The notes below the pieces were generated by a model that was not told the origin of the DNA, ran no database searches, and saw only the letters and a list, made by a program, of their open reading frames with translations. Below are positions 6,226 through 31,030 of a stretch of DNA of 64,000 bases, piece after piece. Origin of the DNA: an uncultured bacterium (lineage in GTDB: Bacteria; Oederibacteriota; JAAXVQ01; JAUVAV01); the NCBI GenBank assembly GCA_963710755.1, contig CAVQBK010000013.1:352001-416000 (forward strand), given 5' to 3'. How positions within the stretch are numbered: the first letter of the stretch is position 1; each line of letters starts with the position of its first letter. Both the position numbers and the translations under genes were made by a program.

Positions 6226-6939
6226 TTATTGTTTATTGTAATTAATATTCAGTTGTTGTTCCCGGCCGTTCTTATCCATGATGTTTAATTTTAATTCTTT
6301 TTCCGTGGGTATTTCCACCACGCTTTCCCACCACTGGTCTTGCTGGCCCAGGTTAATTTTACGTGGTTTCTGTGGTTTTTGTCCCTTGAAGACCGTGCTG
6401 CTGTAAGAGGCACCTACTTCTACCTTGCCTTGCGGATTGTAAAAATCGACCAATCCTTCCCAAACCGTGAGCTGCACTTTTTCATCAGGATTAACCTTTA
6501 GCTCCAAAACCGTGCCTTTGATGGCGGCTACAGCCGATGGGGTATCGATTTCCAAAGGGTGCTTCTGTTTTTTGATGCTGGCCCATAACTGACCAAGCAG
6601 CAATTTTAACCGATTAACTTTTTGGTCCGCCTGATTATCAATCAAAACCAGGTTGGTCTTTTCATGTAGTTTGGTGATGCTGCCGTCATTCAAGACCAAG
6701 GCAGCCCGGGATAATTCCGAGGTTTTGATGAGATCGCCGCCATAAAGCAGCATGCCCTTTTGGGCATCGATCTCGTCCTTAGTGCCTTTTCGCAGCACTT
6801 TGACAATCCCGACTTTGACAATAATCGTAGCCTTGGCCTGAGCAGCTGCGGTATTCACGGCCTGTAGCCATGACGGCGCGGCCGCCAAGGTATAGGCCAC
6901 GGCCATCATTATGAAGAATAATGCCTTCCAGGATTTCAT
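6226..6939 (-). CDS. FecR-domain exported protein
   Basis: Signal peptide; GDLIKT..SRAALVLNDGS, L.LLLGQLW and IDTPSAVAAIKGT...VWEGLV match the FecR pattern. Confidence 0.85.
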   Translation of the reverse strand: MKSWKALFFIMMAVAYTLAAAPSWLQAVNTAAAQAKATIIVKVGIVKVLRKGTKDEIDAQKGMLLYGGDLIKTSELSRAALVLNDGSITKLHEKTNLVLIDNQADQKVNRLKLLLGQLWASIKKQKHPLEIDTPSAVAAIKGTVLELKVNPDEKVQLTVWEGLVDFYNPQGKVEVGASYSSTVFKGQKPQKPRKINLGQQDQWWESVVEIPTEKELKLNIMDKNGREQQLNINYNKQ

Positions 6940-7098
6940 CGTTGCCCTCCAATAGAACCGTTGTTAATTAAAATACCCTGCCCGCAGGCAATTGGTTACG
7001 AGTGGAATTTTATTTTATTTTATTTTTTCCCATTCATCCCGGGCAACCTGGAATTGGCCAGGCCAGAGCCCCGGGAATGAACGGGAACGTATTAATGC

Positions 7099-8112
7099 TC
7101 ATCGCGTTGAATCGAATTGCTGGCTTATAATTTTGGCCGAGCCGGTCTGTAATTGCTTTAACAGGTCTGCCAAATCTTCACTACTGCTGGAAACAGCCAC
7201 TGCCCGGTAAGGCTGCAGCCCTTTAAGCAAGGATGCATCGGTGATCACCTGTCTGACCACACGATCTGCTTCTTCCGGAGAAACGGCCGCGCCGCTTTGA
7301 TCCGGGGCCAGGAGTTTAAACCAGGAGATAGCGGATCGGCCCAAAGAGCCTCCAATGGGTTGACCAAAAACATCATAAGCGATCACTTCCCAAAAGTATT
7401 GCTTATCCTGCTCCAGAGCCCGGGCCTGGGCCTCATAGGTAATTTGGGTGGACGCCACCTTGGCGCTGCGCCAGTAGGTATTAATTTCCGGATCATGGTT
7501 GGGACTAACCACGACTTCATAGCTGTGCGCACTGGTGGCCGGCATCCAAGTGAAGGTCGGCAAAGCAGTATTGACCGCCACGTTCCGGGGAAAGATGGGT
7601 ACGGCCGGGCGGTTCAAGGCGGAGGAAGGCGTAAACAGAGCCAAGGCCACGGTGTAAGGCGGACCGCTCTGGGGCGGCAGTGGCGTAAGCACGATTTTAT
7701 AGTGTCCCATGGGTAAGACGCTACCCCCGCCGGACAGATTTAAATTTGGTTTATAAGCTTCATTGTATTGGGGCTGACTGTTACTCATGTCCATCTGGCT
7801 GGCATTGTAACGGTTTTGGCCGATCTTCAATTCCCCTACCCCAACATTAATCCGTGCCACCTCGGTGGCACCATCCTGGATGGCCAGAGAAAATTGCCAA
7901 TGATCGGCTTGTTCATCGGACAGGGCGCTGAGCATCACCACATTGGGGTTGACCACCAGCGGCTGGCTTTTGAGTACGGCATCGTAAATATCCAGCAGCA
8001 AACGGGGCGCCACGGATACGCCATTGATCTGAACCAAAGCCCGAGCAGACAACATTGCCGCCATGGACAGCAATAGCGCCAATCCAGCCATCGTCAGGGT
8101 ACGTTTAATCAT
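7099..8112 (-). CDS. Exported protein with a fibronectin-III/Ig-like domain
   Basis: Signal peptide; P.FTW.P...A.SYEVVV...L...KQYFWEV.AYD is an FN3-like pattern. Confidence 0.6.
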   Translation of the reverse strand: MIKRTLTMAGLALLLSMAAMLSARALVQINGVSVAPRLLLDIYDAVLKSQPLVVNPNVVMLSALSDEQADHWQFSLAIQDGATEVARINVGVGELKIGQNRYNASQMDMSNSQPQYNEAYKPNLNLSGGGSVLPMGHYKIVLTPLPPQSGPPYTVALALFTPSSALNRPAVPIFPRNVAVNTALPTFTWMPATSAHSYEVVVSPNHDPEINTYWRSAKVASTQITYEAQARALEQDKQYFWEVIAYDVFGQPIGGSLGRSAISWFKLLAPDQSGAAVSPEEADRVVRQVITDASLLKGLQPYRAVAVSSSSEDLADLLKQLQTGSAKIISQQFDSTR

Positions 8113-8148
8113 GGGAACAGTTCCCTCCTTATATTAGTCATGACCTTG

Positions 8149-8748
8149 TTAAAACAATTGAGCTATTTCCAAAGCAAAGCCTTGGGATCTCACTTTGGCC
8201 CTAAGCTTGGGTCCGCCGGTCCTGCCAAGGTTCTTGTTGTCTTCTTCCACCGCCAAGGGCGCACCGGTCAGGTCATAAAGCCAGGACGATAAAAATAGCG
8301 CAACGCCGCCCACAGCCAAACCAATGCCACGGGAAAGCCGGGTGGTATTGGAAAGATTATTAATAAGGGTTTCGTCACTGACGCCGCTGCCGGTGTTGTC
8401 TTGAACCACTGCATAAATATCGCGGCCGCCGTTGTACGCCATGGTCAAAGCTCCCAACTCCACCAGGAGCAATATGGAACCTGTTACCGGCCGGCCGGCA
8501 TAGAAGTGCCCTGACCCCTGGATCACGATTCCAGGAAAAGTGGCCAAAGCTATGGCTGTACCAGGATCTTTCATGGATGACGGGGACGCTGTTTGCGGCA
8601 GTGTCGAGGTTGTCGCAGCCGACCAAGTGGCGTCAGCCAGCAAGCTGCTGTTGGGAAGATCAGAGGAGGCGGCATGAAGGGACACCGTCAAGGTCAGGAG
8701 CATGGGGAAAAGCCACAACAAGGAAAAGCATGGTGCTTTTTTAGTCAT
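8149..8748 (-). CDS. Hypothetical envelope/membrane protein
   Basis: GAGG ribosome-binding site before ATG at 8748; signal-like N-terminus; KDPGTAIALATFPG...GSGHFYAG motif plus hydrophobic helices; ends in F. Confidence 0.65.
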   Translation of the reverse strand: MTKKAPCFSLLWLFPMLLTLTVSLHAASSDLPNSSLLADATWSAATTSTLPQTASPSSMKDPGTAIALATFPGIVIQGSGHFYAGRPVTGSILLLVELGALTMAYNGGRDIYAVVQDNTGSGVSDETLINNLSNTTRLSRGIGLAVGGVALFLSSWLYDLTGAPLAVEEDNKNLGRTGGPKLRAKVRSQGFALEIAQLF

Positions 8749-8801
8749 GGTAACCTCAGGAAAAGTTGGTGTTGCCAGTTTAGTATAGGCCAGGAGCCTT
8801 G

Positions 8802-10718
8802 TCAATTATTTGCTGGGAGGTCAGTTTTTAACTGCTTGACCCCAAATACCGAAAGGGCTTGCGATTTACCCTTGACTGTCACCGCCTTAAATTCCACGGC
8901 CTCCACCCATGCTTTGACCGCGGCGTAAGTGGACGAAGAAATCAGGATCGTCTCTCCCAATTCCTTGGTTTTACTTTCCAGGCGCGAGGCCACGTTGACC
9001 GTATCTCCGATAACCGTATAGCCCATGGCCTGCTCCGATCCCATATTGCCTACAATGGCTTCCCCGGTGTTGATGCCAATACCGATCTTAATGGGCAGTT
9101 TGCCTTCGGCCTGCCAGCGGGCCTGCATTTTCTCCAGGGCCTTGGTCATATCCAAAGCACATTTGACCGCCCGGATAGGATCATCGCTGTGGGCCACGGG
9201 CGCGCCGAAAATGGCCATGACCGCATCGCCGATAAATTTGTCCACCATGCCGTCATACTTGAAGATCATGTCCGTCCAGACCTGGAAGTATTCATTGAGC
9301 CGCTCCACCACCGCTTCCGGAGGCAGCTGTTCCGACATGGTGGTAAAGCCCCGGATATCGGAAAAAAGCACGGTTACAATCTGTTTGTTGCCCCCCAGGC
9401 GAAGTTTTTCCAATGGATTATGCACCAGTTGTTCCACCACCTTGGGAGACACATAGCGGGAGAACATGGCTTTGATGCGCCGGTTTTGATATTCTTCGGT
9501 AATCAGTCTCACCACCATGACCAGCACATAAGCCGTGGCCATGGTCAGCAGAGGGATCAAGGCGGGAATGAGCACCTTGGTTTGCAGAAATATCATAGCC
9601 CCGACAATGATATAGGCGGCCATATACACAAAGAGTACCAGCAGTCCTTTCCAGGGTTTCAGCCGTATAGTGGTCATGGCCACCAACCAGGCCAATAGAA
9701 AGAGCAGCAGGTAGTTGAGTGCTTCCGGGGAGCGCGTAAGGTAATTATTGTTTAAAATGGTATCGAGGACGTTGGCGTGGATTTCCACTCCGGACATCAA
9801 GCCCGCAGCGCCTGACCCCTGCCCTGCCGGAGTCAGAGCCCGGTAATAAGGCGTCACATGTAAGTCCTGAGCTTCGGTAAAGGTGGGCCCGATTAAAACA
9901 ATCTTGCCTTTAAACAAGCCTGTCTCTTTAAGACCGGAAAAAATATCAGGATCTACAACATTAGCATAAGAAATGGTTTTAAAGTGGCCGGCCCCGCCCC
10001 GGTAATTAATGAGCATGCGGGCACCGGCCTCCACCGGAATGGTCAAATCACCATAAACCAGGCGATTGGGGGTCAAACGGAGAAAAGGTTCCTTAATTTT
10101 AAGGTAGCGGGCCACGATTCTTAACCCAAAGGACTGGTAAAGTTGATTTTGGAACTTTTTAAGCAGCGCCGCATGCCGAATAACCCCGTCATCATCGGCC
10201 CAATAGTTGACGTAGCCTACATGAGTCTTGCGTTCATCTATATCGGGGATAGCTTTCACGTAGCCGGTCTTGAGCTCATTGTGGGTGCGCTGCGTATAAA
10301 ATTTGCTGCCCAGCACGATCCAGGCTCGGGAGCGTTCAATAGCCTCTCCCAGCAAGCGATCCTGATGGCTTAATTCCGCCTTACTCTGTTCAGAGAAAAT
10401 CAAGTCAAAGGCAATGACGTGCGCACCGGCCTGGGAAAGATTATCAATGGCTTTGGCAAACATGGCCCGAGGCCAAGGCCAGCGCACGTTGAGGTCCTCC
10501 ATGGACTGATCGTCAATGGCTACAATAATGATTTTATCATCGGGATAGGGCCCGACGGGCGAGCGCAGAACAAACCGGGCGTCAATGAATTTACCCTCAA
10601 AGGATTGACTGAAATCAAAATGATACAAAACAGCAAACAAACCGCCCACCAGCACGGCAATTAAAAGGGAGATGCGGTTCTTGCCCCAGCTTTTAAGCCA
10701 TTCTCTTAAACGGTGCAT
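8802..10718 (-). CDS. CHASE2-domain class III adenylate cyclase
   Basis: CHASE2 motifs (IVAIDDQS, RWPWPR, DDDGVIR, GVEIHAN), three TM helices, and cyclase motifs LFSDIRGFT, DKFIGDAVM and YTVIGDTVNVASRLE. Start taken from the AAGGAG site before ATG at 10718. Confidence 0.95.
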   Translation of the reverse strand: MHRLREWLKSWGKNRISLLIAVLVGGLFAVLYHFDFSQSFEGKFIDARFVLRSPVGPYPDDKIIIVAIDDQSMEDLNVRWPWPRAMFAKAIDNLSQAGAHVIAFDLIFSEQSKAELSHQDRLLGEAIERSRAWIVLGSKFYTQRTHNELKTGYVKAIPDIDERKTHVGYVNYWADDDGVIRHAALLKKFQNQLYQSFGLRIVARYLKIKEPFLRLTPNRLVYGDLTIPVEAGARMLINYRGGAGHFKTISYANVVDPDIFSGLKETGLFKGKIVLIGPTFTEAQDLHVTPYYRALTPAGQGSGAAGLMSGVEIHANVLDTILNNNYLTRSPEALNYLLLFLLAWLVAMTTIRLKPWKGLLVLFVYMAAYIIVGAMIFLQTKVLIPALIPLLTMATAYVLVMVVRLITEEYQNRRIKAMFSRYVSPKVVEQLVHNPLEKLRLGGNKQIVTVLFSDIRGFTTMSEQLPPEAVVERLNEYFQVWTDMIFKYDGMVDKFIGDAVMAIFGAPVAHSDDPIRAVKCALDMTKALEKMQARWQAEGKLPIKIGIGINTGEAIVGNMGSEQAMGYTVIGDTVNVASRLESKTKELGETILISSSTYAAVKAWVEAVEFKAVTVKGKSQALSVFGVKQLKTDLPANN

Positions 10719-10797
10719 ATGCGCTCCTTTGAATTGACATAATAACATTCGCCCATATTTATCTTAAAGTTAGGTTCCTAGCCGCCCTGTTAATCAC

Positions 10798-14375: not shown

Positions 14376-17300
14376 TTACGCCGATCCGCCGCTGGTCAAG
14401 GCTTGCCGTTTAAACAACTTGTCAACCAGTTCCCTGTTTTCTTCCCAAATCATGCCATCTTGAGGTGCACTCATGATACTCATAAATTGTCCCAATCGCC
14501 CCCGTGAGTAAGCCGGCAACACGGCGGGTATATCAAATTGCATCTTCAACCCCTGCGGCGCCGCGCCGGCATAGCGCTGGCCAATGGTCGTGGTTTTGGC
14601 ACCCAGTTGGCGGAAAAATTCATTATAAAATTCCAAAGCTTGCGTCAAGTCTTTATCAGCTTGGGTGGCCTGATGCGCCTGACCCTTGGCTTTAGCCAGT
14701 ACCAGGAGGTGATGACGCTCCTTCAGCATGTCCTGCAGGCCCAAGGCCAAATTCAATAAGGCCTGAGTACGCTGTTGTTCCTCCTTGGCCAATAAATAGT
14801 CCATGGTATAAAGTCCCAATCCTTGTGTATTTTGCACGGCTTCCATCTCGGCCATCGCCTGAGCTTGTTGTGGCAATTGTTGCAGCAGGATTTTAAGGGC
14901 GGCTTTGGGATAAGCCCGCTGAAGACGGCCGGCGACAAGATTGTTAACCACATTGGGATGATTCAGCAGATAGCCGTAAAATTTGGCCAGGCCTCGGGAA
15001 GGCCAGGCCCGGTTTAGGTCAACGGCTGAAGGCAGGTTTAGCTTTTGGCCGCGAAATAATTGAAAGGACACTTGATTAAACAGCTCAGGCGCCCGGCCCT
15101 GTAACACCGCCTGTACCTGCGTTTGCGGCCCCTGCACTTCATAGATATGGGGCAGGTAAAAATCAAGACCAGCCAAAAGCTGCTTCTCCCCCCGGGCATC
15201 CTGCATGACCGCCAGACTCTTATCCGAGGTGTCGTCACCGGTTTCCAGCAACTGATGAGTAGGATTCAGCCTGACCAGCACACCCCGGATGTCCTGAGAT
15301 AGGATCTGGCCGGCTTCAACATCTTGGCGGTCTTTTAAAACCACCGCCTGTTTTTCAGCGCTTACCGCATGTTGAGCCAGCACGCCCAGAGCCTGCAGTC
15401 GGGTTAGTAAAGGGTGTGCCTGGGGCAGGTCTTTCAAGGCCTGTCCCAGCAGCTGGATCTTGGCATCAATCATGCGCTGCAAGGCTGGAGAAACGGACAT
15501 CATCGACACTTGGGAAACAGATTCATCTCTTTCGACAGTCCTGGCCAGGGGCAGGTACGCTTGATCCTGAGCCGGTTGTGATTGCGCCTGCATTAATTCT
15601 TCCAAAACTCTGGTTTCAATCAACCGCTTTTGTTTTTTAACCATGGTTTGCGCATCGCGCAACAACTGGCCCAAAGGTGAAGTTTGGTTTGCCATCACGG
15701 CCAGCAAGGATTCGGGCTGGGCGCGCAGATGCTGCACCTGGGCATGCCGCAGCCACTGGTAAAGGTCAAAGCTGTTGTCTTGATGGAGCTGAGGCACCAG
15801 GCTCCGCGCTTCCTGTTGCAACAGATCCAGCAAACGCAGCAGGGTGACGGAATCCACGGCCGGCAGCTCGGTGCCAAAGCCTTGCAGGTAATCAGTTCTG
15901 GTGAGATGACCGGTCTTTTTTTCCTGAATGACAGCCACCGATTTTAAAACCTGATCATAGTAGCCCAAGCTGATCCGTAAGCGCTGCAATGTATTGCTGG
16001 CCTTGATCCGCCAATAGGTCAGGGCCCGCTGCTGCTCCACTTTAAGAGCCACAGAGCGCTTTACCCACCCGGCTAAAAGTGGTACACGGCCTTCATCCGC
16101 ATTGAGGGCGCTAATGAGCATAGCTTGCTGGGCCGGCGTTAGGGATAGTCGACCCAGTGCAACATTAAGTTGGTTGGGCATAAACTCAGGCGCTAAATCC
16201 TGCAACCGCGACAATTCATTGGGCAGAAAATGATGCTCTGCCACAAAAGCCGCCAACTTCTCCACATTACCCTGGGTCCAATCAGGCCTTTGCGGGCTGG
16301 CCCAGGCCCCTGTTGTAAACAGAACCAGACTAATCATCATCAGTTGCAGACCGCGGCCGATCACACGTATCAGGCGCAAGCTACCCGGGCTGATTTTAGA
16401 AATAGGCGTATTGATTTTAAAAGCAGCGGAACTAAGTGATTTGACCAGAGGCATGGCCTGAGCAGCTTCATGGCGCATGGTCACAATCCCCAAACCTGCC
16501 GCCATCATCAAAATTGAGGTCAGGCCATTGGAATCGGCAAAGAGCATCCATAAAAGGCCTGTGGCCAGCATGGCGGCCGTAAACACCACCGCTAAAGAAG
16601 TAAATTGCAGTATCACCTGTTTGCGGTCATTGGCCGTGGCCGGCCTTTCTTTTCCACTTATATCGTCATAGACCCGGTGCCAGTGCAACCAGGTAAAGAG
16701 TCCTGCCGTGGCTCCAATCCCAGCGGCCAGTAAGGCCAGCGGCCAAGCTAAGGCCGCAAGGGTCACGCTGCCTGCCATAAGGGTGCTGATTAAAGGTGCT
16801 GTCGCCAAAGCCATGACAGCGCTTAGCAGCACATCTTCTGTTTTTTGGGTAATGGTTTTTTCCGTACGGTCTTGGAAGATGCCGAAGGTGAGCAAATGGA
16901 TAGCCTCTTTAAGCACAGGGCTGGTATGGCGGGCCGAGGCCGGGGCCCAGTGATCCTTAAACTTATCAAGCTCGATTCGTCGTGCGTTATCACCGGGGGC
17001 GATACTTAACTTAGTGGCCCAATAGGCCAATTCGCCTATAGTTTTTGCCCTCTTTCCGCCTTCTTTAGAATAACGGTCATAAAGGCTCAGGATAAGGTGC
17101 ATGTCTTTTAAGAATCGGCTAATACCTGAAACAGGAGGGTGCTCTTTCCAATAGGACAAATCGCCTTCGGTAACCGTTAGATTTCCCCACGTTTGGCTGA
17201 GTAATGGGCTTCCCAATTCTTCCAATGATGACTGATCAACGTGCTCTGGCTGGGTTACTTTAAATACTCCTTTAAAATTCTCGAGCGTTTGATTGCCCTT

Positions 17301-20300
17301 CAGAATCTCGTCTGCCCACCAGCCTATATCGCCGGGCTTCTTACCCCGAATATCGGATTGAGCATACAGTTCAAGCAACTGCTGCATGATAACCAGGAAT
17401 TGCTTATAATTTGTTCGATGCTGCTTATCATTAGCCCAATACTTCAGATCGCCTGAATGGATTTGAATATCACCATAAGCGCGCTTTGTAAGATCCTGCT
17501 CCAAGGAAACAATGTCCGCTGACGGTACCTCGCCTGATAAAACAAGTGGTGTAGCTGTTTTAACGGAATTGGCTTTCATGTTCGCAATTTCAGCCAGGAT
17601 GTCTTTGGCCCTTTGCTCCAATTGTCTCGGATCCACGGCCACTGATTGCTCTACTTGTTGGATGGTGGTATCTCTCTTTAAATTTCCCAAGGTCCCCCTT
17701 CCGGACATTTCTAAAATAAAAAGCCCCAGGTCCCAACTGGTGGTGGTTGATGCCTTTTGGCCGTTGGCGACATTCAGGCTGTCAGCTATGTCCTTAGTAA
17801 AAAGACCAGCTTGATTCATAACCTCCAGACTGGTCATGGCCTGCTGGGGATAGAGTTGAAGAAAAGGCGCCACGGCATAAGGCTGAACCTGGTTCAGCTC
17901 CACTGACCCCAGTCCATGATACTTGCCGTCATCACCATAAGCTGGTGAGGTACCCCAAGCCTGATAGCCATGGGCTTTGGCATAGGCTTGAAACACGCCG
18001 CCCATTTCCTCCAGCATTTGCAAAGCCTTGCCGTCGCGGATGAATATATTGGGCAAGCTGTAGAAAAAGGCCGCCATATTTTCCGTGCCGCCGCCGCCAT
18101 AACGGGGGATGGTGAAGCCCATGATGGTTTCCTGCGGCACATGGGCATACCTGACCTGATTGTAAGCAGAAGGCTGCAGGGCACCGGCCATAATGGCCGC
18201 CAGATAAGCCGAGCTGTTGTCCGTAGGGCCTTCCAGGATCCAGCTTCTGTTCCAGGGATCGAGGTGACCTTTTCTGATGGCCTGCCAATCGTCAGTAGTC
18301 AGGCCTTCTTTAGTGCCGCCCAGCAGGCGCCCATTTTCAGTGACCACTTTATCCCATTGGTACCGTCCGGCAATGGTAGCGGCCAGTTCGGTGACCTCTT
18401 GGTTGATACCCGCATGCTTGAGCCATTGCAGCGCCAAGGCCAGATTGCCTTCATCAATAATGCTGTTCTTGATTTTAACTTTACCGTTTGCTTGTTCCGC
18501 CGATGGAATGCCTTGCCTATCCCTCACATTCAGCCAAGCCCAGGTAAAGGGGAACCCGTAAAGATTATATTTCTGCTGATAGCCATCGAGCATCTTCAAG
18601 GCCTTCATCAATTGGGCCAGCGATTCTTTACTTTTATTATGCTGATAATCCAAAGCCAGCACCATGAGGCCAATGCCGATGTTGCTGGTGCTGGTGTGGC
18701 CTGCCAGCGCGCCATTGCGGTTGTTACGATTATCTACCGGCCAGCCGGTGTTGGGATCGATGAGAGACTTGAAATCCCTGATCGCCTTGGCTTGCAATTG
18801 TTGGACAACCTTTTTTCCCTGAGCAGTTAATCTTTGGTAGGTATACGTTTGGGTCGTGGAAGTCCCTTTGGCAAAACTTTGATTGACCCCTCCGGTCCAG
18901 GGGCTGACCGTCAAGCTGAGGCTGAGGAGCAATACTCCAAAAAGTCCGAGCATGCGATGCCACCAGTGCTTTTTCGACTGGTCTTTACCCGGTGACAGCG
19001 CTGTGCCATTAGCCAAGGGAAGTTGATTTAAAATGGCGTTCCCCTCTTCCAAACGTTTAATGGTCAGCGATTGGGGTAAGCCCAATTGGTCGCTGAGCTT
19101 GTCTATTTGTTTGAGCATGGCCAGATAACGATATCCTCCGATTTCGCCCTGCATGGTATGGCCACCCACCCAAAAAACAGTTTGTCCTGTTAAATAATGA
19201 AGCAGCATCATCCATTGCACATCGCGAGAGGCAATAGCATCCAAAATCTTCTTTATCCGGCGTTGGGTGTACCGATCCTTGAAGTCCAATGGCTTTTCAG
19301 TATTTTTGGGATCCTTATTCTCCAGGATATTTTCCAAGTCATTAAGTGAGAGTTGATGGAGTTCTATTCCTAACCGCTTCTTTAAAAGATCATCCAAATG
19401 CAATTCCCTGGCCATGGCCATGATGCCCTCCACGGTGCCCGTGAAAGAAGCGCTTTGGCCTGGAAACGCTTGTTTGGACGTGGCTAGTCTATGGAGCCCT
19501 GAGCTGTTGAGGGTAAAGCCGCCGCTGTGGGCAAGGCTTGCTTGGAATTGGCCTTGTCGAAACAAACCGGCCCTCAAACGTTCCCCAAAGTTCACCACCA
19601 TGCCCGACACCTCCTCTTTTTTGGAGGTGGCAACAGATTCAACTTCAGGTGTTGGGGGGCGGTTGGTCCAACCAGACGTTACTGCCACCGGCCGGCCTTT
19701 TCCATTGTCACGCCGGAGTGCTTGTGCATGAGTTTTAAAATCAGCAGTGATCATGCGCGCCAGCAGCTTTTCCTGACGGCGGGTTTGTTTTGGTCCCAGT
19801 CCCAAAATGTCCACATTCAGGTTCCGTGTCCCATAGCCCATGGCCACGGAACGGGCAAAGAAAGGAATCAGATAATAGGAATACAGCGCTTTTTGGAGGT
19901 CCCGGTCCGCTACCACGTCAGGATGAGGCAATTCCGCCTCCGCTGATTTGCCCTCAGCTGTGGTGAGCCGCACGGTCATGCTTTTACCTGTAGCTTGTAC
20001 TACCTCCCGTACCGCCTGGGCAGCATCAGCAAAAAAGACGTCATTGTCTTTGCCTTGGCTGAAAATGGACAAGGCCTGCCCAATGGTTTTCCCAAAAATC
20101 GGCGACAGATTATTAAGGTCGGCACCCCTGGCATAAGCATGCCATATGGCTTGCTGATCCATCGCCTGCCACTCACCCTTTTCATTGGCGTATTCCATTT
20201 CAACGCTATAGGCCCCCGGACGGGAAGGTTTCCAGCTTATCTCCCAGACCGACAAGTCCTGAGGCAACCCATGCGCAAGCGAAGCCTCCGTGGCCTTGAT

Positions 20301-20817
20301 TGGTTTGGCCTTCAAGATGCCGGCGACTTGCTGACCCTGTTCCTCTTTAACCACATAGCGAACACCTTTACAGTCTTTGGGAAGAAAAACAGCGAGATGA
20401 AATTTTTGCCCTATTTGGGCCATCTGGCGCTGTCCCTGGTCCAAAGGCGGATCAAAGGCTGGTAAAAATAATCGGTGTTGCAACAGTTGCGCCAGACGCT
20501 TTTCCTGGTCACTTAAATCTTCGAGTTTTTCACCTCTGGCAATAGCCAAAGCACTCTTCTCTGCCACACCTTCAGCCGCAGCCCATAAGTCCAGAATGTC
20601 CTTGGTATACGTCTGAATATCCCCGCGTCCTGTTTGCTTTAACAAGCCCTGGATAAAGGTCAACTTTTGAAGTAATTCAATTTCTTCTCGTGTCCTGCTA
20701 TTTTCACCTCCCAGGAGCGCATTGAGCCGTTCCACGGTGATATGGTGAGGCAGACGAATGTCAAATTTTCCGGCATGGGCATTGGGGTCATTGATACGGA
20801 ATTGAGGCGGCAGGTTA
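14376..20817 (-). CDS. Giant multidomain membrane protein, C-terminal part (end of GH77, possible degenerate ROK-like region, glucoamylase/GH144-like domain, helical repeats, TM module, unknown C-terminal domain)
   Basis: The 2119-aa ORF at 14376-20735 stays open upstream to the T5 run, reading NLPPQFRINDPN, which completes the GH77 motif begun in the upstream ORF. It also carries HTSTSNIGIGLM, IIDEGNL and WGTSPAYG motifs. Confidence 0.8.
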
Positions 20818-23800
20818 AAAAGTCGGAAGCTGAAAGCAAAGCCAAGCCCGCCCGGCTGCTCAGCAGACGCCAGAGGTAAGCCCCATGCACCTGTTCCGCT
20901 ACTTCCGGACTATCCAGATCATGGAGCTCCCCGTCCAGTCCTTCGAAACCATCGGTCTTGAAATCATCGATAACCTTTTGCTTGCTTTCCCCGTTCATGG
21001 CAGCCCACATGGCGCTGAAGGTCACTGAATCATGGAGTGCGCCCGTAGCCAGCATACGGCTGGGCATGTGGTCAGGATAATAAGGATTTAGGCGGTCACC
21101 CCAGGGCTCGCCCGTAAGCGCGAAGATATAAGGCGCAAAGCCATAAGCCCCGCTGGTCTCCATTTCCGTTTGTGCTTGGTGGGGCACCACACCCAGGGTT
21201 TCATAAACCAGCGTCACACCGAGGGCCTTGGCATAGCGTTCCAGCTCAGCCAATAAGGTCGCCGAGTGGGGTGTGGGCTTAAAATAACCAAATTGTAACC
21301 GGTCCGATTCCTTGGGATCCATGTCAAAAAAATAAGTTTTCCAAAATCCTTGTGCTGATTGTTCATGCCCTTTTTTCCCTTTGATAGCATCAGCCGGAGT
21401 GGTTCGCAGGTAATCCTGCACCCGGGCATCATGTTTGATTTTCTGCTCCACGCTTTGGTATTCCCGGCGCCAGGGTGAATCTTCAGGTAAGGCTTTGTCG
21501 TAATCCTGGCGCGGTACGGTTCGGGCAATGTAAATGGCATTATCAGGACCGATGCGGCCATGTTCATTCATCAGCCAGTGCAAGGCATCAGCCGGTAATT
21601 GATTTTCCAAGTTGGCTGGCAATTGACGGCGCCACTGTTTTAATTTGTCCATATAGAGCGCTTGGGCTTTGTCGGCCGCGGCCTGGCGCAAGCGCTCCTG
21701 CTCTTCGTTGTCCGCTGCAGCCGATATGGCTGCCATGGCTTCTTGGCGTATGGCCATCATCTCCTTAAAAATCCCCAGGTCTTTCCAGGTCACATCACCT
21801 TCCGTGAAATAATAGCTGCGGAACAAGGCGAGTGCATGATCAATACGAATATACCGGCCGTATTTAGCCATGGCCTTGATCTGGGCTTTGAGGGCGTCCA
21901 TGGACTCGGATAAATACATCTGCCAGTATTGGGCATTGGGGTAAGCTTCTTCCGCAGGCACGCCGCGGCTGACGAGACGCAGAAAACCGAGCTTCTTTTT
22001 CAGCCCATACCAGGCCGGATGTTTCCAGGGATCGGCTTCACTGGGAGCAATACCCTTGTCCACCGCCAATTCAATGCCTTTGCTGCGGGCATAAGTTTTC
22101 AACTCATCATATTGCGCATCCGCGATAAATTGAACAAAGGCCTGAAAAAGAATCTGATCAGCCAGTCTTTTTTTGGCGTGACGCAAAGATGCCGGTTCCC
22201 TGGCCCATAAGCCTTCCTCGCCTGCTTCACATATATCACCTTTCCAGCGCTGCCAGGCCCAGTCGCGCAAGTCATCCAGTTCATATACTGTTTTCCCTTC
22301 CTGCTCCGCTTTTTCCTTAAGCTCATGGCGGCGCTGATTGTATAGGGCCTGAAAATCCGAATTTTCTTGACGGCGTTTTTCAGCCAGGACCAGTTGTCTT
22401 TCCCTGGTGGCAGGCATGGCCTTCCTATTATTCTTAGACCATGTTTGGAGGACCTCCAGTTGAAGAGTCTCACCATCCAGATATTGACCATCTTTTTCCC
22501 AGCGGGCCACTTCCTTGGCCATAAATTCTTGTTTGAGCAAATGGTAAAGAAGATCGTCTTCTTTATTCTTCTTTTCCTTTTTCCAATAAGTCTCAAAGGC
22601 TTGGCGCAGGTGCTGATTTTTTTCATTGTCCGGGTAAGCGGCCAAGGCTTGCCAGACCGATTGCAGCACCTCCAAGGTCAAGGCCCGTTTCTGATCATAT
22701 TGGGCCCGTTCAGCCTGACGCCACTTTTTGACGGCATCATAATTAAAAACTAATTTCCCTACTGCTCGCGGAGCATAGACGTGATTAAATACCCAGGGCA
22801 GATTGATAAATTTGGGATCCTTCATTTCCTCGCTTTCATAGGCATAGGGCGAGTTGCCGATAGGCGGCCAAAATAAACTTTCCATCATCATGGCTTTAAA
22901 GCCCATTAGTTTATGAAAATCCACCACCTTTTTCATGAGGATCAAATCCATGATCCCCATGTCCTCTTGTGAGCGCCAATGGAAGAGATAATCAATAGTG
23001 GCCACCACATTACGTAAGCCGGCCCGCGCCGGGGAAATAAATTTTTGGTAGGGGAAGAGTTTTCGATACAACGCATGGTGGGTGATGGCGCCGGCCAGAT
23101 AAACCGCGCTACCAGTCAGGCTGGTGGCAAGGATATGGTGCGGGGCCAACATCAGCACGGTTAGGCCGACCACAGCGGACAGCCCAAGGCTTACGGTAAT
23201 TTTAATGAAATTTAAACGGATTTGTTCTGTTTGATCCGAAGAGGCTGGAACTTCTTTATGCTCTGTTTCATCCCAAATGGTGGTATGCAGGAATGCAAAC
23301 AAGGGCTTGATGGCCAAATCATACACCCCGTAAGCCAATGCCAGCGATGCCGCCAACGCCGCCAGGAACCAGCCCGTCCCCACGCCGAGTACCACCGCTA
23401 TAATAGCCGGCGCCATGGTTGCTCCCAGCAGGGTAAAGAGCATCATATTCTCAATCTGCTCAGCTATGTCCAGCTCCACTTTATCCGACAAACGCCCAAA
23501 GGTAAATTTGTGCACCCAGGCTTTGATTTTGGGACTGGTCAGGCGGGGCGATTCTTTTTCCGGCTCAACAGCACCTGAGCTGAAAGCAGCCGCCAAGTCA
23601 GGATCTTGGCGCAAGGCCAACAAAACCTGTTCCGGTTCCAAGCGGGCATTAATCATTTCCAATATGAGTTGCCGCTGGATTTCATTAAAACGTTCATTGT
23701 GGGTTTCTTCGCCATGACCTTCGCGCAAATGGGCATTTTCATGCACCAACGTTTCCATAATATCGTACAGCTTGGCATAATCTTCCTGCGTGGTTGATTG

Positions 23801-26800
23801 GTGGTTCATAAACCGGTTCATCCAAGCGAGCCAATCGCCAATGCTATTTTGGTTAAAATTAATCCAGTCAGGACCATAGAAGGCTATGCGTTTCGTGGAA
23901 ACCGTCATGAACCCTACTTTATAAGGACCATAGCCATGGGTCTGCATCAAAGGCTGCATAAGATCCTGACAAAGTTTGGCCAAAGCATGATGCGCTGCGG
24001 TGAGCTCGCTTTCACGCAGAGGCGTGGGCCGGTCATCCTCAATCGTCACTTGTCCAAATCCTTGGTGTTGTGGCTTTTGTGCTTCTTTCAGCAACAGGGC
24101 AAAGGGTTCACTTAATTCTTTCAGGTCCACTGGGCTGTCACGGCGGTCGGCCTCAACCGCCATACAATGGAGATCGTAGAGGGAAAGTTTTTTACCCTCA
24201 CCAGGTTGTTGGACTTTTATTCTGGTGAGCAGTGTGGTGAGTTGATCCGAATTCTGAATAAACTGAACTTCCCGGTCAGTCAAATCTTCCCACCGTCCCT
24301 GATTAAGCTTACCGGCCAGAGTCTCAGTAGAAATGTAATGACGGACCAAATGATCATATTTGTACACCAAATCCAATGGCCGGTCATAATTCAACGTTGC
24401 TGCCGCGGTCTCCAGCACCGCGGCCAGGATTGCTTTTTGCAGTCGTGGCAAATATTTTTCCGTCTCCGCCAGCCCGCCCCGTTCCCGGTCGGTTACAATG
24501 GAATAAACATGTTGTTTGAGGCTGACCGGCAGGCTGAGGCTCAATCCTTGTGTTTTGAGCATGTCTTTTAGCGCTGCCGGCACCAAGGCCCACAATTCAG
24601 GGTATTGATTCAAGTCCATGACAAAATAGCCGGCCTGCAACACGCCTGTTTTCCCGGAAGCCCGTTTAACCACTTTGATCTTTTCCTGGTCCTGCCAGTC
24701 CACCTCAGCCAAGAGGGCCGCCTGTTCCGAAATATTACGGCCGTTGAAAGTAATGGTCAGCCTTCTTTTTTCATCAACCGACCCCAAGGTGCCCGCGTAG
24801 AGTTGCAAACTGTCGCCAATAATAGCTGTTTCCAAATCAATGCCGTCTTGATTCTGTTCATAATCCCCGGGGTACTCCTTGATCCAAGTATCGACGCGGG
24901 TACCTTCAAACTGGCCTTCAAACTCTGCGAAGCGCTCAACCTCCCAGGTAAAACCGCCTTGGCCATTGGGTATTTTTCGGACCTCCAAAATTTGAAAGCG
25001 GCCACTGCCTGATTTTCCGGAGATCACACGAACCCGGTCCGCGACCGTAAGATTTTTGTACCATCCCCGGCCGTAATATCCTTTGGAGGGATCAGCGCCT
25101 TCTTTCGCACCGGTCCTATCCAAGGGAAGCAGGAAGTTCAACATATCTTCCGTATCCATGCCAATGCCATAATCGCGGGTGCTTAGCACCAGTTGGGTTT
25201 TGCCTTTGGTTTGAACCGGCACGGCTGTGACTTCGATGCGTTGGGCTCCGCCCTTTTCCAAGCTGGCTTTATCCGCATTTTGAATGTTCTCTCTTATCCA
25301 TTCATAACCTTTTCCCATGCCGCCGCGCGCGATGTCTTCTTCCGTTTGAGCGTAAGCCTCATTGCCTTTAAGCGTTTGCTTTAAAGCCGCCACACTTTGA
25401 AAGATCCCCAAATTGCGGCGCACCCCGGCCAGCACTGAAAGTCTAATTTTTTTAATAACGTCCAAGCTACGGCCCCGCGGCAGGTTCAATTGGCGTGGGC
25501 TCAAATCTTCCATATCAACATCGCCGCGCAAATAGCGGATCAAAAAGGCGCCTTCAGCAATTTCATCCGGCCCGGTCTCTGGGGACAACCATTCCCAATG
25601 AGATTGCAAGCCTGTAATCATTTCAAAGCCTCTGTCCTCTCCTGCCTCCCCTGCAGCTATTACATGCAACCAACGATCCAAAACTTGATTAAAATACAGG
25701 TTATCGCTTACCACTTGCCCCAACCCATCAAGCAACTGGCCCACGGCCCTATGATGCTGCCGGAATAACCTACCGCAGATTTTGCTCAATGTTTCCTGGT
25801 TTTGTGGATTAAGACGTTTGATCTCTTGGCCGTCGGCAAAGGGCAGGAGCCAATCCAGTTTTTCCATATCCGCCGCACTCCAATTGTAGTGGAGCAGATT
25901 ATTTATAAACCGCGATTTCGCCTCCGGTGACAAGTGGTTATAAAATTCGTCACTCGGCTCAATAAAAGGACCGTCGGCAATATTCTTAAACCAATCCAAC
26001 GGTTGAATGGTGATGGTTTGGTTCTGCTTAAATATCACCAAGTCCGATTTGAGAAGATCAATAAACTCTCCCTCCAGTCCCGTAAAAATGGCGGTTGATC
26101 CCTCCAAACGGAACAACCTTTTTACCCCCCACTCCCCGATAATGGCATAATTGACGCCGCCAATGGAAAAAGGATTCCATGCATCGGGGATATTGCTCAT
26201 GTTCTCAACGTGGGTAAAATACCCATCACTTAAATGAAACAAACTCCAATGCCGTCTATGCTTGAGCCACATATAGATTTCACTGCCCACCTGCACGGGG
26301 TTGGTGGCTTTCTCCATCTCGCCCAATTCCTTAACCGGCTCAAACCGGTCATGAATTAACCGGTATAGCCTTGTTTCCCCATTTGTTAATGCGCCTAAAA
26401 TATAAATTTCTTGGCCCACGGCCACAGGTTTATCGTGATATGTAAAAGCAACCTCCGCCAGTTCTTGCACTTGAACAAAACGCCCCTGAACCAGCCGATA
26501 TAACCGGGCATCATTTGCTGGGCCGGCAATCTCATAGGTTTCCCCGCCCACTTCCACCGGCGTCCCATACCCATCCTTATCTTTCAATTCCACAATTTCC
26601 ACAAACCGTCCGTCAGTTAATCGATAAAAATGCTGCGAATCATCACTTAAACTGGTTAAGTTTACATAAATTTGCCCTCCGGCACTTACAGGGATACCAA
26701 TCTCACGTGCATCCGCCAATCCTTGGGTTAATTCGAACCGTCCATTAGCCAGCCTGAATAAGTAACTGTGATGGTCTGAAGAGCCAATGAAAAAAACTTC

Positions 26801-29800
26801 TTCCCCAATTTGAATAGGGCCCTCTTTAAGGTTTAATCTTCTTAATTCTTGTACCACTTCAAATCTACCGTGAGATCGTCTATAAATGATGTCTTCAGCA
26901 CCTTGCCTAACCGCTACATAAGTTTTTCCGCCTGCCTGACCAATCGGGTATATTATCTGCGCTGGTTTGAGATCAGGGACCACTTCGAAGCGACGGCCTG
27001 ACCATTGATATAAGCTCATGCTGCCCGGCTCGCCGGCGCCTACCAAGATATCTTCGCCCACTTTTTCAGGCATTTGGATAACATCCAAGCCGTGAAATTC
27101 AGTCAGTTCCGAAAATGCGGAACCAGTCCAGCGATAGAGATCATAAACAATGCCGCGCTGCATCCGTAAAAACAAATCACCATCAATTTCCGCCACGTCG
27201 TAGCTTTCACCGGCCAATTCGGTTTTGAAAGCATCGGCTATGGAAAAACCATGCACTGCGCAAAAGTCATCTATCTTCGACAAACGTTCCGCGGCCTTTG
27301 GAGCCAGTCCGGTCCGGCCCGACCGGAAATAATTGAACTGCAACAATTGCCGAATATTAACCGGATAATCATCAAACTTAAACGTCATGCCCGCCGGTGA
27401 TGCATCGGCTACGCCCCGGGGGACTGAGCCTCCGGCATGCAGAGTAGCTTCCGTTCCTGGTTTGGTGCCATAGCCGGTCCAAACCCCGAAGAGTAAATTC
27501 AAGAGCAGCGGGCCTTGCCCCGCTAAGGCTTTATCAACATAGGCATAATAAATAGCCTGGTTTAAAAGCAACAGCTTGCCTACCCGGGCAAAGGGGCGTG
27601 TCAAGTTGGCGATCCATACCGATTTGCCGCTGGACAACACAGGCTGGGCATCGATGCCTCTTGGATCGAATGGGAGCAGTCCCTCCTCAACCGTGAGGGG
27701 CTTTTTACCTGCATAGGCCTCGGGTGCGATGGCTTGCTGCTCCATGGCGGGTAAAAAAACATAGTCCATTTCTTTCAATCGGCTGGCAGCCTGATAAAAT
27801 CTTTGCCGCAGGTGACGCGCGATATTAAGTTCTTCACCCTTGGTCTTGGTCCGCTGTGATTGCTGTAAGCGTTCGGCGGCCAGATAAACAGCATTGACCA
27901 CGGGCATCATGCTTTCCGGATTATTGGAAAAATTTCGGAGCAGATTGTCGGCTACGGTCTGAAAAGCTCTGGCTGTCACCTCGTCCAGCAGGATTTGCTG
28001 GCGTCCCTCCCTTTGATCGCAGGCCGTGGGAAGATCAATCACCACTTCTTGAGCCAAGGCGGCACCTTCTATTTCCAAGGTCTCTACTTCCGTGCCACCG
28101 ACCAGTAAATAAACTTTGCTGGTCTTACCCACGTGCCTGGACCAGTAGTATTCTTCCCCATTGGCGGTCCAATCCTCCTGGAGTAATGCCGACTTCAATT
28201 GATCACCAGTTCGGTTGGTGGAAACTTCAGGCACCGGTAAGGCTTCCATGAGAGTTGACAATCCTCGGCCCTCATCAAAAGGGGCCACCCCCTTTCCTGA
28301 GTCACGCACATGTAATTCCCGTCCATCCTCGCTCAGCCAATAGCGCACGGCTTTCTCGCCCAACCGATAGGTTACCGGTTGGCCTGCCTGGTCAAAGGGT
28401 GACAAATCATTAACCAGGACTTGGCCGCTTTTCCCCTGGAAGATGAGACCGCGCCGCGAGGTACCCAGCTTTTTTCTGATGTAGTTTTCCAGACGCTTGC
28501 CATCCAAGGGCTGCTGGCGGTGCAGCACCACCTCGGTGCCCGGGCCCTGGGTGGCTAACAGGGATTCGTGATAAAAATTAACCCGGATGGTACCTCTTGT
28601 TTTTACGAATACTGCTTTGTAGCGCGTACGTCGTTCCTTATCAGGTATAGTGATAAACTCCAGGCGGTCGCCTTCGTTCTGCAAGAGCCCGATGGCTTGA
28701 TAGACACCGCGGCCAAAGCGGCCAATAGCGTCACCCATGGCGTCAAAGCCATTGTTGATCAATTCCACCAAAGCTTGATCAGCCGTGGTGGATTGGCGTT
28801 TCATGAGCGTATCCAAGCGTTCCGGCTCAAGAGGAAATCCTTCGGCCATGCATTCCCGGGCAAGGTCTACAAAAACAGGCCCAATGCCTTCCTTGGGCTG
28901 CGAAGTCTCAAGGGCTTTGATAAACCGTTCCCGATAGGCTCGCTGTTTTTCTGCTGGCAAATCACGCAAATGCTTGATGAGACTGACATATAGAGCAAGA
29001 TCATAGCCGTCTTTGGTGTAGAATTGTGATGGGGATTGCTTCTCGGAAAGTTTAGCTTTGGGCCGTCGCGGTAAAACCCATTTAACTAAAATTATCAGTG
29101 CCAATAAGATCGCCGCGGTCCAAGTTGCCTGGCTGGTCAGACCGCCTGCCAAAGGTGATTCCCAAAGCGGGATGTGAGGTAAAAAACCCGTGGTTCCGGC
29201 CATCAGCAATGAAGCCGGTGACAACGCCGGCAGAGGCCCTTGTAATTTTATTTTCATGGTTACCCAGGCTTGCTGCAAAACCCTGCTTAGGGATTCCAGA
29301 AATGCACTCGGTGCATGCAAGTTGATTTTTTCATAAGCCGATTGATCGGCAAACACCGCCGCATAATGCTGACCGGGCAGCGCTTTCAAAACGACTTCAG
29401 CACCGGGCTCAAGTCCATACGCTTGCAGCGGCCGGTTGGCCACCACGACTATTTTTTCTGCTTCACCAACCTTGGCTAGAAAAGCACGGACGCCTTTAAC
29501 CGGCGCCTTTAATTCCTGCCATTGCGTAATGTCAAAGCTCAGTGCCTGTTGAGCGCTGACTTTCATGGCCTCTGCACTGGCCGTGGAAAAAAGCAAGGTT
29601 CCCCAAGCCATGCGTTTAAGTTTATTGACGGCCAGGGCTTGCAATTGATCGGCCACAGCCAGAATGGTCTGGTTTTTAGCCAGCAATTGTTCCAGCGGGG
29701 TACGTCGATTCTGCAACAACTCAAAATAAGGATTAACCACGTCCAGACGGGAAACCTGGGGGCGCACCAACAAATAAGTAATATTTCGTTTTCGCAATTC

Positions 29801-31030: not shown

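Follow-up and report, generated by a model that had tools for sequence, protein, structure and literature searches.

A giant bacterial gene and its family of head-and-tail proteins in an FCPU426-type lineage

The window considered here, a 64,000-nucleotide stretch of contig CAVQBK010000013.1 (positions 352,001 to 416,000) from the genome assembly of an uncultured bacterium, carries a giant gene on its reverse strand, which the assembly presents as two overlapping open reading frames (ORFs). The first, at 20660..31030 (-), starts with an ATG that has AGGAG 8-9 nucleotides upstream, and encodes 3,456 amino acids (aa); the second, at 14376..20735 (-), lies in a different frame, encodes 2,119 aa and overlaps the first by 76 nucleotides. 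Judged by its sequence, the gene as a whole is a member of a lineage-specific family of giant proteins, in which a constant N-terminal domain (the ‘head’) and a short C-terminal segment (the ‘tail’) enclose a changing set of other domains (the ‘cargo’).

The giant gene and its reading frame

An earlier note on this DNA had spoken of ‘essentially one reading frame’; we find two ORFs with a single change of frame between them, joined by one further base in the contigs of two public sequencing runs. Reading all three frames through the junction, we see that the conserved end of a domain of glycoside hydrolase family 77 (GH77) runs on in the frame of the second ORF, upstream of that ORF’s first start codon; GH77 is carried on across both frames, and the break therefore sits inside a domain, at a five-base run (Table 1). 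Fifteen public runs, none of them RNA, hold part of the stretch, and the contigs of four were compared over 2 kb at the junction, parts of which have no contig cover in these four. The extra base stands behind position 20819 in both of the runs that cover the site, which come from different studies (salt-marsh, 2019; soil, 2024) at a depth of about 4 each; the other two do not reach it. The family head lies on the first ORF and the family tail on the second. Once the base is inserted, the frame reads through 5,551 aa beginning at the ATG, and no stop other than at the frame-change site interrupts its 5,551 codons; roughly one stop per 21 codons would be expected at random, so the frame is not open by chance. 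The gene as such is one frame, and its split in the window is an assembly error or a strain-level mutation.

That the locus is instead decaying or misassembled, being two genes or a pseudogene open by chance, is in our judgement highly improbable; misassembly and separate genes had been raised in the earlier note as ways in which its reading could fail. Such a state would accommodate the position of the frame change inside GH77, the gutted condition of a ROK-like module described below, and the presence in this assembly of about five family gene units split into overlapping frames; but the codons are stop-free at all but the one site, two independent runs have the frame intact, the head, the tail and the catalytic motifs of GH77 are preserved, and the GC (guanine plus cytosine) content of the gene is that of its flanks. 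We see no misassembly beyond the one missing base, and the two ORFs are a single frame in two other public data sets.

A genome of the same genus (G001) has no DNA match to the junction and holds only a 114-aa open frame that matches the last 89 residues; a protein search found no fused orthologue among proteins of 3,710-5,000 aa, a range outside which the expected 5,551 aa lie. Four further family genes stand in overlapping frames (C3:409593-423663, C3:91757-98188, C6:5580-16438 and C1:312083-321624; contig numbers are those of the source genome), and in three of these four the downstream piece bears the family tail. That about five family gene units are split in this manner suggests either a raised rate of insertions and deletions in the assembly or ongoing decay.

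The head, the tail and their distribution

The source genome (3.44 Mb in 13 contigs, 98% complete) contains 53 open frames of at least 1,500 aa. Thirty-one ORFs, the present one included, begin with the head; they range from 635 to 9,474 aa, the head is always N-terminal, and a hidden Markov model (HMM) finds exactly the same 31, which together amount to 80,801 aa, or 7.0% of the genome. Paralogues of the N-domain with different middles, as had been predicted from the letters alone, are thus what we observe: 30 of them, each with the head at the start of its ORF (29-46% identity over aa 20-460) and with differing cargo behind it. In all 31 copies a basic stretch comes first and then a hydrophobic helix, followed by an invariant proline and in most by a W-A-F-E/D-type junction, and in 26 of the 31 a transmembrane (TM)-like 19-mer follows the head at aa 480-1000.

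The cargo of the paralogues was scanned as 18 + 14 pieces, with matches taken at an expectation value (E) of <=1e-5. PPDK_N occurs in five pieces, in two of them together with PEP-utilizers; elsewhere we find NTP_transferase, transglutaminase core, GNAT, HD, NUDIX, TreT_GT1 plus GT1, LMW phosphatase, alpha-amylase, cytidylate kinase, GGDEF and glycoamylase, and 17 pieces have no match at this threshold. What the giant gene has in common with the rest of the genome at the level of BLASTP is only the head, one helical repeat and its own hydrophobic four-helix (4-TM) module.

Among 99 genomes of the phylum, the head is found (E <=1e-20) in 15: all 11 of one family (f1, this genome included), all four of a second (f2), which together are all the genomes sampled from one order, and none of the 84 elsewhere, many of which are incomplete. 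The longest head-started open frame in these phylum genomes runs to 13,678 aa, and in a pattern search of genome contigs 278 of 306 matches encode a relative. The relatives have record titles of candidate division FCPU426, Candidatus Firestonebacteria, Candidatus Goldiibacteriota or uncultured bacterium; the organism is not one of the Omnitrophota, which the earlier note had named for their giant multi-enzyme genes. Stand-alone relatives of the head, 500-570 aa in length, have ordinary signal peptides; one (P0024, E 6e-89) carries an Omnitrophota label, and the ESM-Atlas clusters nearest to the head are Omnitrophota hypotheticals.

Three heads of the source genome, at C4:146561-150529, C11:5739-7643 and C12:3-7175, are near-identical, as are the small ORFs that flank them. 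C11 and C12 are contigs of 9 kb, and the triplicate has the look of a recent duplication that the assembly did not resolve; the C12 copy is cut short by the edge of its contig, and its remainder may be the 6,830-aa frame with which contig C1 begins.

No Pfam or NCBIfam model matches the head, and a profile of it finds no match among PDB sequences (best E 0.95); the sole Pfam link, a weak one, is that of the stand-alone relative P0029 to the ChaN/Tiki model PF04187 (E 0.027). The AlphaFold2 model of the head (predicted local distance difference test, pLDDT, 84.8) has as its five best matches among 48,161 chains EreC (Z-score, Z, 9.2), HopBA1 (8.9), ChaN (8.7), 2qgm (8.6) and 2rad (8.3), with 149-184 residues aligned; all five are of the TIKI superfamily, and RRSP and PMT stand further down the same list. 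Foldseek likewise puts EreC first (E 0.02, probability 0.95). The head also carries a helical insert of about 200 aa.

Passages of PMC6254334 name PMT, HopBA1, Bcr135 and ChaN as TIKI-superfamily proteins, and give the catalytic set of RRSP as E3900, H3902, E3930 and H4030 plus R4001, with H85/E113 for Bcr135. In the head, H88, E116, R376 and H404 are invariant in the 31 copies and D86 is conserved in at least 90%; the spacings of 28 (H88 to E116) and 28 (R376 to H404) compare with 28 and 29 for the RRSP residues given there. With a moderate match in fold and a good one in motif, the head is probably an active hydrolase of the TIKI superfamily.

At the other end of the chain, most C-termini of the family present, in order, a hydrophobic-x-hydrophobic-Pro motif, a short helix, an Arg-rich patch and an end of the form small-[S/A/G]-[A/V]. 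Of the 30 gene units that possess a C-terminus, 27 obey the end rule, as do 36 of the 1,396 other ORFs of at least 300 aa; the family count was made on the same tails from which the rule was derived. For an independent set we took 16 presumed ends of giant ORFs that bear the head, from other genomes of the order, from which two off the contig, one masked and one whose place was guessed fall away; the tail is present on 10 of the 12 evaluable ends, the other two being one that closes on ..GLAA with an odd composition and one with none. The tail is found also on P0003, P0008, P0010 and P0011. Family tails are more basic than other C-termini (mean net charge +3.1 vs +0.95) and more amphipathic, and that of the window, ..KRQALTSGGSA, is closest to the tail of the 9,474-aa ORF (25%). 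A complex prediction for head (aa 45-460) and tail gave no answer, with a score of 0.00 in two runs made without controls.

The earlier note had thus placed a constant element at the C-terminus in part correctly: the last ~60-70 residues stand as the shared tail, and the ~640-aa C-domain falls. The latter was rejected as a constant terminus, as it has no paralogue in the genome at the level of BLASTP and five matches among 1.84 billion library representatives, these partly owing to the tail.

Three further ends may be recorded here. An 8,131-aa frame at C4:21437-45832 (+) closes on a family tail (..RLKGAGSAA) and has no detectable head; another kind of head or a split-off start is possible. 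A 227-aa frame at C2:2468-3148 (-) bears a strong family tail (E 4e-11) and probably represents the last part of one more giant gene that has been split. A 3,986-aa ORF with a head should end at locus L140 (G011:C9:85700-86900), where the sequence is masked.

The domains between head and tail

Nearly every domain named in the earlier note was recovered, by Pfam, profiles, motifs or fold comparison (Table 1); TM helices were called by a Kyte-Doolittle hydrophobicity scan alone.

Table 1. Features of the giant gene, from the N-terminus of its product to the C-terminus; ‘second’ marks residue numbers of the second ORF, and coordinates are those of the window
Feature	Residues	Coordinates	Strand	Remarks
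Whole giant gene		14376..31030	(-)	two ORFs in the assembly; 5,551 codons with the base seen in public contigs
Signal-peptide-like N-terminus (putative)	aa 1-39	30914..31030	(-)	basic n-region, hydrophobic core, invariant Pro34, S-W-A then F-E-P
Family head	aa 51-460	29651..30880	(-)	TIKI/erythromycin-esterase-like fold (predicted), helical insert; D86, H88, E116, R376, H404 conserved
First TM helix	aa 634-655	29066..29131	(-)	followed by PRRPKAK (positive-inside)
GHKL module 1	aa ~700-1200	27431..28933	(-)	Hsp90-like; N-box E756..N760..D763; D910xGxG
Nine tandem repeats of 42-45 aa	aa 1298-1680	25991..27139	(-)	LYRL..GRFE..
GHKL module 2	aa ~1889-2060	24851..25366	(-)	Hsp90 N-domain-like
Zincin-like HENAH..H motif	aa 2413-2460	23651..23794	(-)	conserved in relatives
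Hydrophobic 4-helix module, copy A	aa 2498-2695	22946..23539	(-)
Divergent GH77	aa 2885 to ~3440 of joined frame	20700..22378	(-)	RIDH 3062, ETLG 3277, LHD 3332
Frame-change site		20817..20821	(-)	five-base run; one more base behind 20819 in contigs of two public runs
ASKHA/ROK-like remnant	second, aa 190-580	18996..20168	(-)	two deletions
Internal signal-anchor-like helix	second, aa 595-613	18897..18953	(-)	KKHWWHR just before
(alpha/alpha)6 beta-1,2-glucanase-clan domain (GH144/‘putative glucoamylase’-like)	second, aa 635-1010	17706..18833	(-)
Helical repeats	second, aa 1073-1244	17004..17519	(-)	common to the 9,474-aa ORF on contig C3
Hydrophobic 4-helix module, copy B	second, aa 1266-1453	16377..16940	(-)	26-28% identical to copy A
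Further hydrophobic helix	second, aa 1455-1473	16317..16373	(-)	ends ..TTGAWASP
C-domain	second, aa 1474-2049	14589..16316	(-)	nearly without relatives
Family tail	last 70 aa	14379..14588	(-)	..FDIP.., GRLGQFMSIM helix, ..KRQALTSGGSA-COOH; weak-scoring member

Working from the first TM helix towards the C-terminus, we come to the two GHKL modules. In module 1 the N-box and the DxGxG motif are invariant in five sequences, and the model (folded with four relatives, pLDDT 66.7) has 40 Foldseek matches at E <=0.001, the best at 3.5e-5, those shown at this threshold all being of the Hsp90 family; VIA-align places MutL, GRP94, ParE and GyrB at Z 6.2-6.5. Module 2 resembles the N-domains of Hsp90 (E 6e-4, or 6.8e-5 when a profile is used); the Pfam model HATPase_c stays under its cut-off (17.5 vs 26.4 bits). 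Both modules are Hsp90-like, with motifs and fold of the Bergerat type, and are predicted to bind ATP. Of the nine repeats between them, candidate blades of a beta-propeller, eight were found by pattern and one, at about aa 1597, was read by eye. The zincin-like motif itself, HENAHLREGH at aa 2430, is kept in four relatives, with a weak match to the Pfam model WLM (E 0.054, 14 bits vs a cut-off of 26).

The GH77 4-alpha-glucanotransferase domain is recognised by PF02446 (110.5 bits vs a cut-off of 25, E 1.3e-31, first-ORF aa 2885-3406), includes an insert of about 165 aa and spans the frame break. Its scores against the NCBIfam equivalog models are far under their cut-offs (81.6 vs 556), and it is therefore a divergent member of the family and not a MalQ orthologue; since a canonical MalQ-type GH77 (380 bits) lies at C1:272344-274002 (+), that of the giant gene is an extra, divergent copy. 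The RIDH motif aligns with the RIDH of the genome’s own MalQ (segment E 1e-7), whilst ETLG and LHD are paired with EDLG and THD in a weak collinear segment; we take RIDH, ETLG and LHD to hold the catalytic Asp, Glu and Asp, as in Thermus amylomaltase. In the window the barrel is interrupted, the frame change falling before its last conserved stretch; with the base from the two runs it is uninterrupted.

The region behind GH77 can be aligned with the ASKHA/ROK-kinase-like modules of three other giant ORFs. In the copy of the window, deletions have removed both phosphate-binding stretches (GIDVGG and ITGSGIG in the relatives); PF00480, the Pfam ROK model, reaches no better than E 0.029, in two of the four aligned members, and this copy has no Pfam match. 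We rejected an identity as ROK sugar kinase on both these grounds, and the ‘possible degenerate ROK-like segment’ first noticed here is a gutted remnant. For the beta-glucanase-like domain, a five-sequence profile run against the PDB finds 8xuj (4e-11 over 331 positions), 4gl3, a ‘putative glucoamylase’ (7.7e-10), and the middle domain of cyclic beta-1,2-glucan synthase, Cgs (4.1e-6); PF10091 matches three of the five aligned members (best 2.3e-4) and the copy of the window not at all at E <=0.1.

The 4-TM module had been put forward as an element shared by the family; its HMM finds nothing in the genome besides the two copies inside this gene, and we rejected it as a family part. Behind copy B, the end of the further hydrophobic helix, ..TTGAWASP, resembles the S-W-A/F-E-P junction after the N-terminal helix, like a second internal signal-like junction.

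Outside the genome, four proteins (P0004-P0007, two labelled Elusimicrobia/Elusimicrobiota and two without label) share the order head, TM helix, GHKL 1, repeats, GHKL 2, HExxH, and in a 5,875-aa protein of ‘bacterium F11’ the TM-GHKL 1 unit occurs in two copies, while no part of the second ORF is present. Among 15 genomes of the order and 99 of the phylum, GHKL 1 is found in the window’s own genome only. The ROK-like and beta-glucanase-like modules occur in other giant ORFs in other combinations. Modules have evidently been shuffled between giant genes.

Modules that recur in other combinations, like independent units, would also suit a polyprotein precursor, in which the chain would be cut by the TIKI-like head on the outside and/or by the zincin on the inside into separate enzymes and membrane modules. 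Two protease-type elements are indeed conserved, the head residues in 31 of 31 copies and HExxH here and in four relatives, and in passages of 10.1101/2023.11.21.568195 the authors proposed likewise for N-terminal C39 and S8 peptidases in Omnitrophota. Saying this, an exported head would be out of reach of cytoplasmic linkers, and most paralogues have no second protease domain in Pfam; nor was a cleavage-site motif found between the modules, though no search aimed at one was made. We regard such cleavage as unlikely, and equally so its corollary, that the length of the gene would reflect co-translation and co-location and not one working protein.

Surroundings, possible role and known systems

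Downstream, a Yip1-like gene converges on the end of the giant gene; upstream, past a gap of 430 bp, lie DoxX-like and DUF5723-like genes. No secretion gene adjoins it, as had been remarked from the sequence, and the 31 copies have no conserved neighbour (the largest neighbour cluster lies near seven of them), nor a secretion gene or transporter in that role. A common promoter or leader upstream of the 31 is likewise not found, the commonest 10-mer being present in five, and promoter and terminator scans at both ends of the gene were at or under shuffle level. In the genome as a whole there are about 11 TolC-like ORFs (22 OEP repeats) and one S41 C-terminal protease, with 0 matches to a C39 peptidase. 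The Pfam matches include no RTX repeats.

Elsewhere in the window, genes for an NADH-linked [FeFe] hydrogenase (34460-39007, (+): Nuo51-like, Fe_hyd_lg_C with small-subunit domain, 2Fe-2S thioredoxin-like) point to a fermentative anaerobe with ordinary metabolism. A CHASE2-adenylate/guanylate cyclase gene is followed on the same strand by unknown ORFs and a FecR-domain gene (6226-10748, (-)), and a 476-aa protein with two CBM6 and one CBM35 (50702-52132, (-)), which has no catalytic domain in Pfam, adjoins an M16 peptidase pair-domain gene.

These surroundings bear on whether the product could be an exported or injected polymorphic effector, whose head and tail would be secretion handles, the tail serving as C-terminal signal of a type-I-like or other route, and whose hydrophobic modules would enter a target membrane so that the enzymes act in prey, host or competitor, as in MARTX. 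Constant ends around a swappable middle are the design of polymorphic toxins, and the cargo mostly needs cytoplasmic substrates (PPDK_N/PEP-utilizers, cytidylate kinase, NUDIX, HD, GGDEF, GT1, GHKL); the toxins RRSP, PMT and HopBA1 contain domains of the TIKI fold, and the TolC-like ORFs would be to hand. Type I secretion signals lie in the last ~60 residues, a location that the tail matches. However, secretion genes are neither conserved around the 31 copies nor present beside the giant gene, no C39-type peptidase is found in the genome and no RTX family among the Pfam matches, and a Sec-type N-terminal signal with stop-transfer helices behind it argues for insertion into the cell’s own membrane; moreover, a 3.4-Mb genome with ordinary metabolism is not reduced like those of known episymbionts. 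We consider both the export by such handles and the action inside another cell doubtful.

Our preferred reading, to which we would give about an even chance, is that the one gene yields a 5,551-aa polytopic membrane scaffold of the head-and-tail family, with enzymes on both faces of the membrane. The Sec system would export the head and the helix at aa 634-655 would stop transfer, such that the GHKL-repeat-GHKL-zincin core and GH77 stay on the side of the cytoplasm, the face on which ATP and alpha-glucan are found; the helix at second-ORF aa 595-613 would then put the beta-glucanase-like domain outside. The outcome would be a membrane-tethered scaffold that has an ATPase/protease-like core and disproportionates alpha-1,4-glucan on the inside, and cleaves beta-1,2-glucan on the outside. 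Head and tail would serve in cis as handles by which the giant chain is made, anchored or processed, and would take no part in the cargo chemistry, given that every copy keeps both, along with the catalytic residues of the head, whatever its cargo. The threading of the membrane and the mobilisation of glucans and proteins we infer from the domains and the hydrophobic segments; basic residues flank the helices of the giant protein on the predicted inner side, and nucleotide-dependent cargo follows an odd number of predicted helices in ~7-8 of the ~12 paralogues that bear such cargo.

Several points weigh against this arrangement. Three to four paralogues put nucleotide-dependent domains on the ‘wrong’ side, by what is a crude hydrophobicity count; the 4-TM module may have three helices or four, which leaves it uncertain on which side GH77 and the C-domain lie; and a scaffold role leaves the tethering of usually soluble enzymes unexplained. 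As to its constant ends, the head’s Z of 8-9 is near the usual background of 7-8, with no PDB profile match and, on a relative, a Pfam link at E 0.027, and the window’s own tail scores weakly (HMM E 0.057) and has a net charge of 0. The extra base that joins the two ORFs is supported by one low-depth contig per run, in two runs.

More tentatively, and with clearly less than an even chance, head and tail may mark an undescribed route of sorting or maturation, made up of a TIKI-like hydrolase in cis and a basic C-terminal tag, with its own machinery only in family-bearing genomes; the two would direct the insertion, anchoring, cleavage or export of chains of up to ~14,000 residues. Should it turn out that head and tail are signals for sorting or processing, this would be a new route of membrane-protein biogenesis, and with the pair one could search for giant genes and mark their limits, those split in assembly included. 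The family offers a tractable handle: its two conserved ends are short and easily recognised, its head is predicted to be catalytic and has four or five residues open to test, and a single 3.4-Mb genome supplies dozens of natural cargo swaps. We found no published description of it in the literature on Omnitrophota giant genes, Tiki/Ere/TraB/ChaN or FCPU426, for the last as judged by title or abstract among the papers listed.

Returning to the membrane scaffold, its first half recalls the membrane ATPase-protease FtsH, by analogy only, in its predicted order of an exported N-terminal part, a membrane helix, a cytoplasmic ATPase and then the metalloprotease motif HExxH; the ATPases are Hsp90-like GHKL and not AAA+, the zincin is not M41, and we do not claim homology. 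Its second half invites comparison with Cgs, a very large polytopic membrane protein that joins several glucan enzymes: second-ORF aa 635-1010 resembles Cgs/NdvB and the beta-1,2-glucanase clan (GH144, 4gl3, 8xuj) by profile, whereas the giant protein has no GT84 or GH94, and the partner enzyme here is the alpha-glucan GH77. With polymorphic toxins and MARTX the family shares ends that stay constant around exchangeable enzymatic middles, a large number of paralogues in each genome and hydrophobic helices within a very long chain; it differs in that its cargo consists of metabolic-type enzymes and not of recognised toxin domains, in a Sec-type signal, and in that no immunity gene, secretion genes or RTX repeats are seen (window, 31 loci, Pfam).

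TIKI proteins have a signal peptide, an exported domain and then a membrane helix, and the head is predicted to follow the same order. To this can be added the predicted alpha/beta fold with a parallel sheet, as in TIKI/TraB/PrgY, Ere, Bcr135/136, ChaN and RRSP, and the D/E-x-H ... E ... R ... H set at spacings that nearly match those given for RRSP and Bcr135 in the passages of PMC6254334. What sets the head apart from the superfamily is the lack of a significant profile match, the helical insert of ~200 aa and the thousands of residues of cargo fused to it.

The closest parallel for the whole gene is found in the giant genes of Omnitrophota that combine signal peptide and TM helices, among them the class 1 ‘multi-enzyme metabolic clusters’ of Nielsen & Lui (2026 preprint, 10.64898/2026.06.07.730766) and those of West-Roberts et al. 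(2023 preprint, 10.1101/2023.11.21.568195). These belong to another lineage, the head-and-tail proteins being smaller (0.6-14 thousand aa), and C39, S8 or SecA-like parts are reported for them, whereas the present family is defined by a TIKI-like head plus a tail; no TIKI/Ere-like head or shared tail appears in main-text passages of the preprints, supplementary catalogues aside. Common to both are long ORFs with a signal peptide and many TM helices, unrelated enzymes on one chain (with HATPase_c, GNAT, HD, NUDIX, GT1, ROK and sugar enzymes there too), little sequence conservation between copies and, in some, a peptidase-type domain near the N-terminus. Giant bacterial genes have so far been known mainly as Omnitrophota catalogues; with the family considered here the phenomenon reaches another uncultured lineage (FCPU426-type) of marsh and soil metagenomes, where it takes up ~7% of coding capacity.

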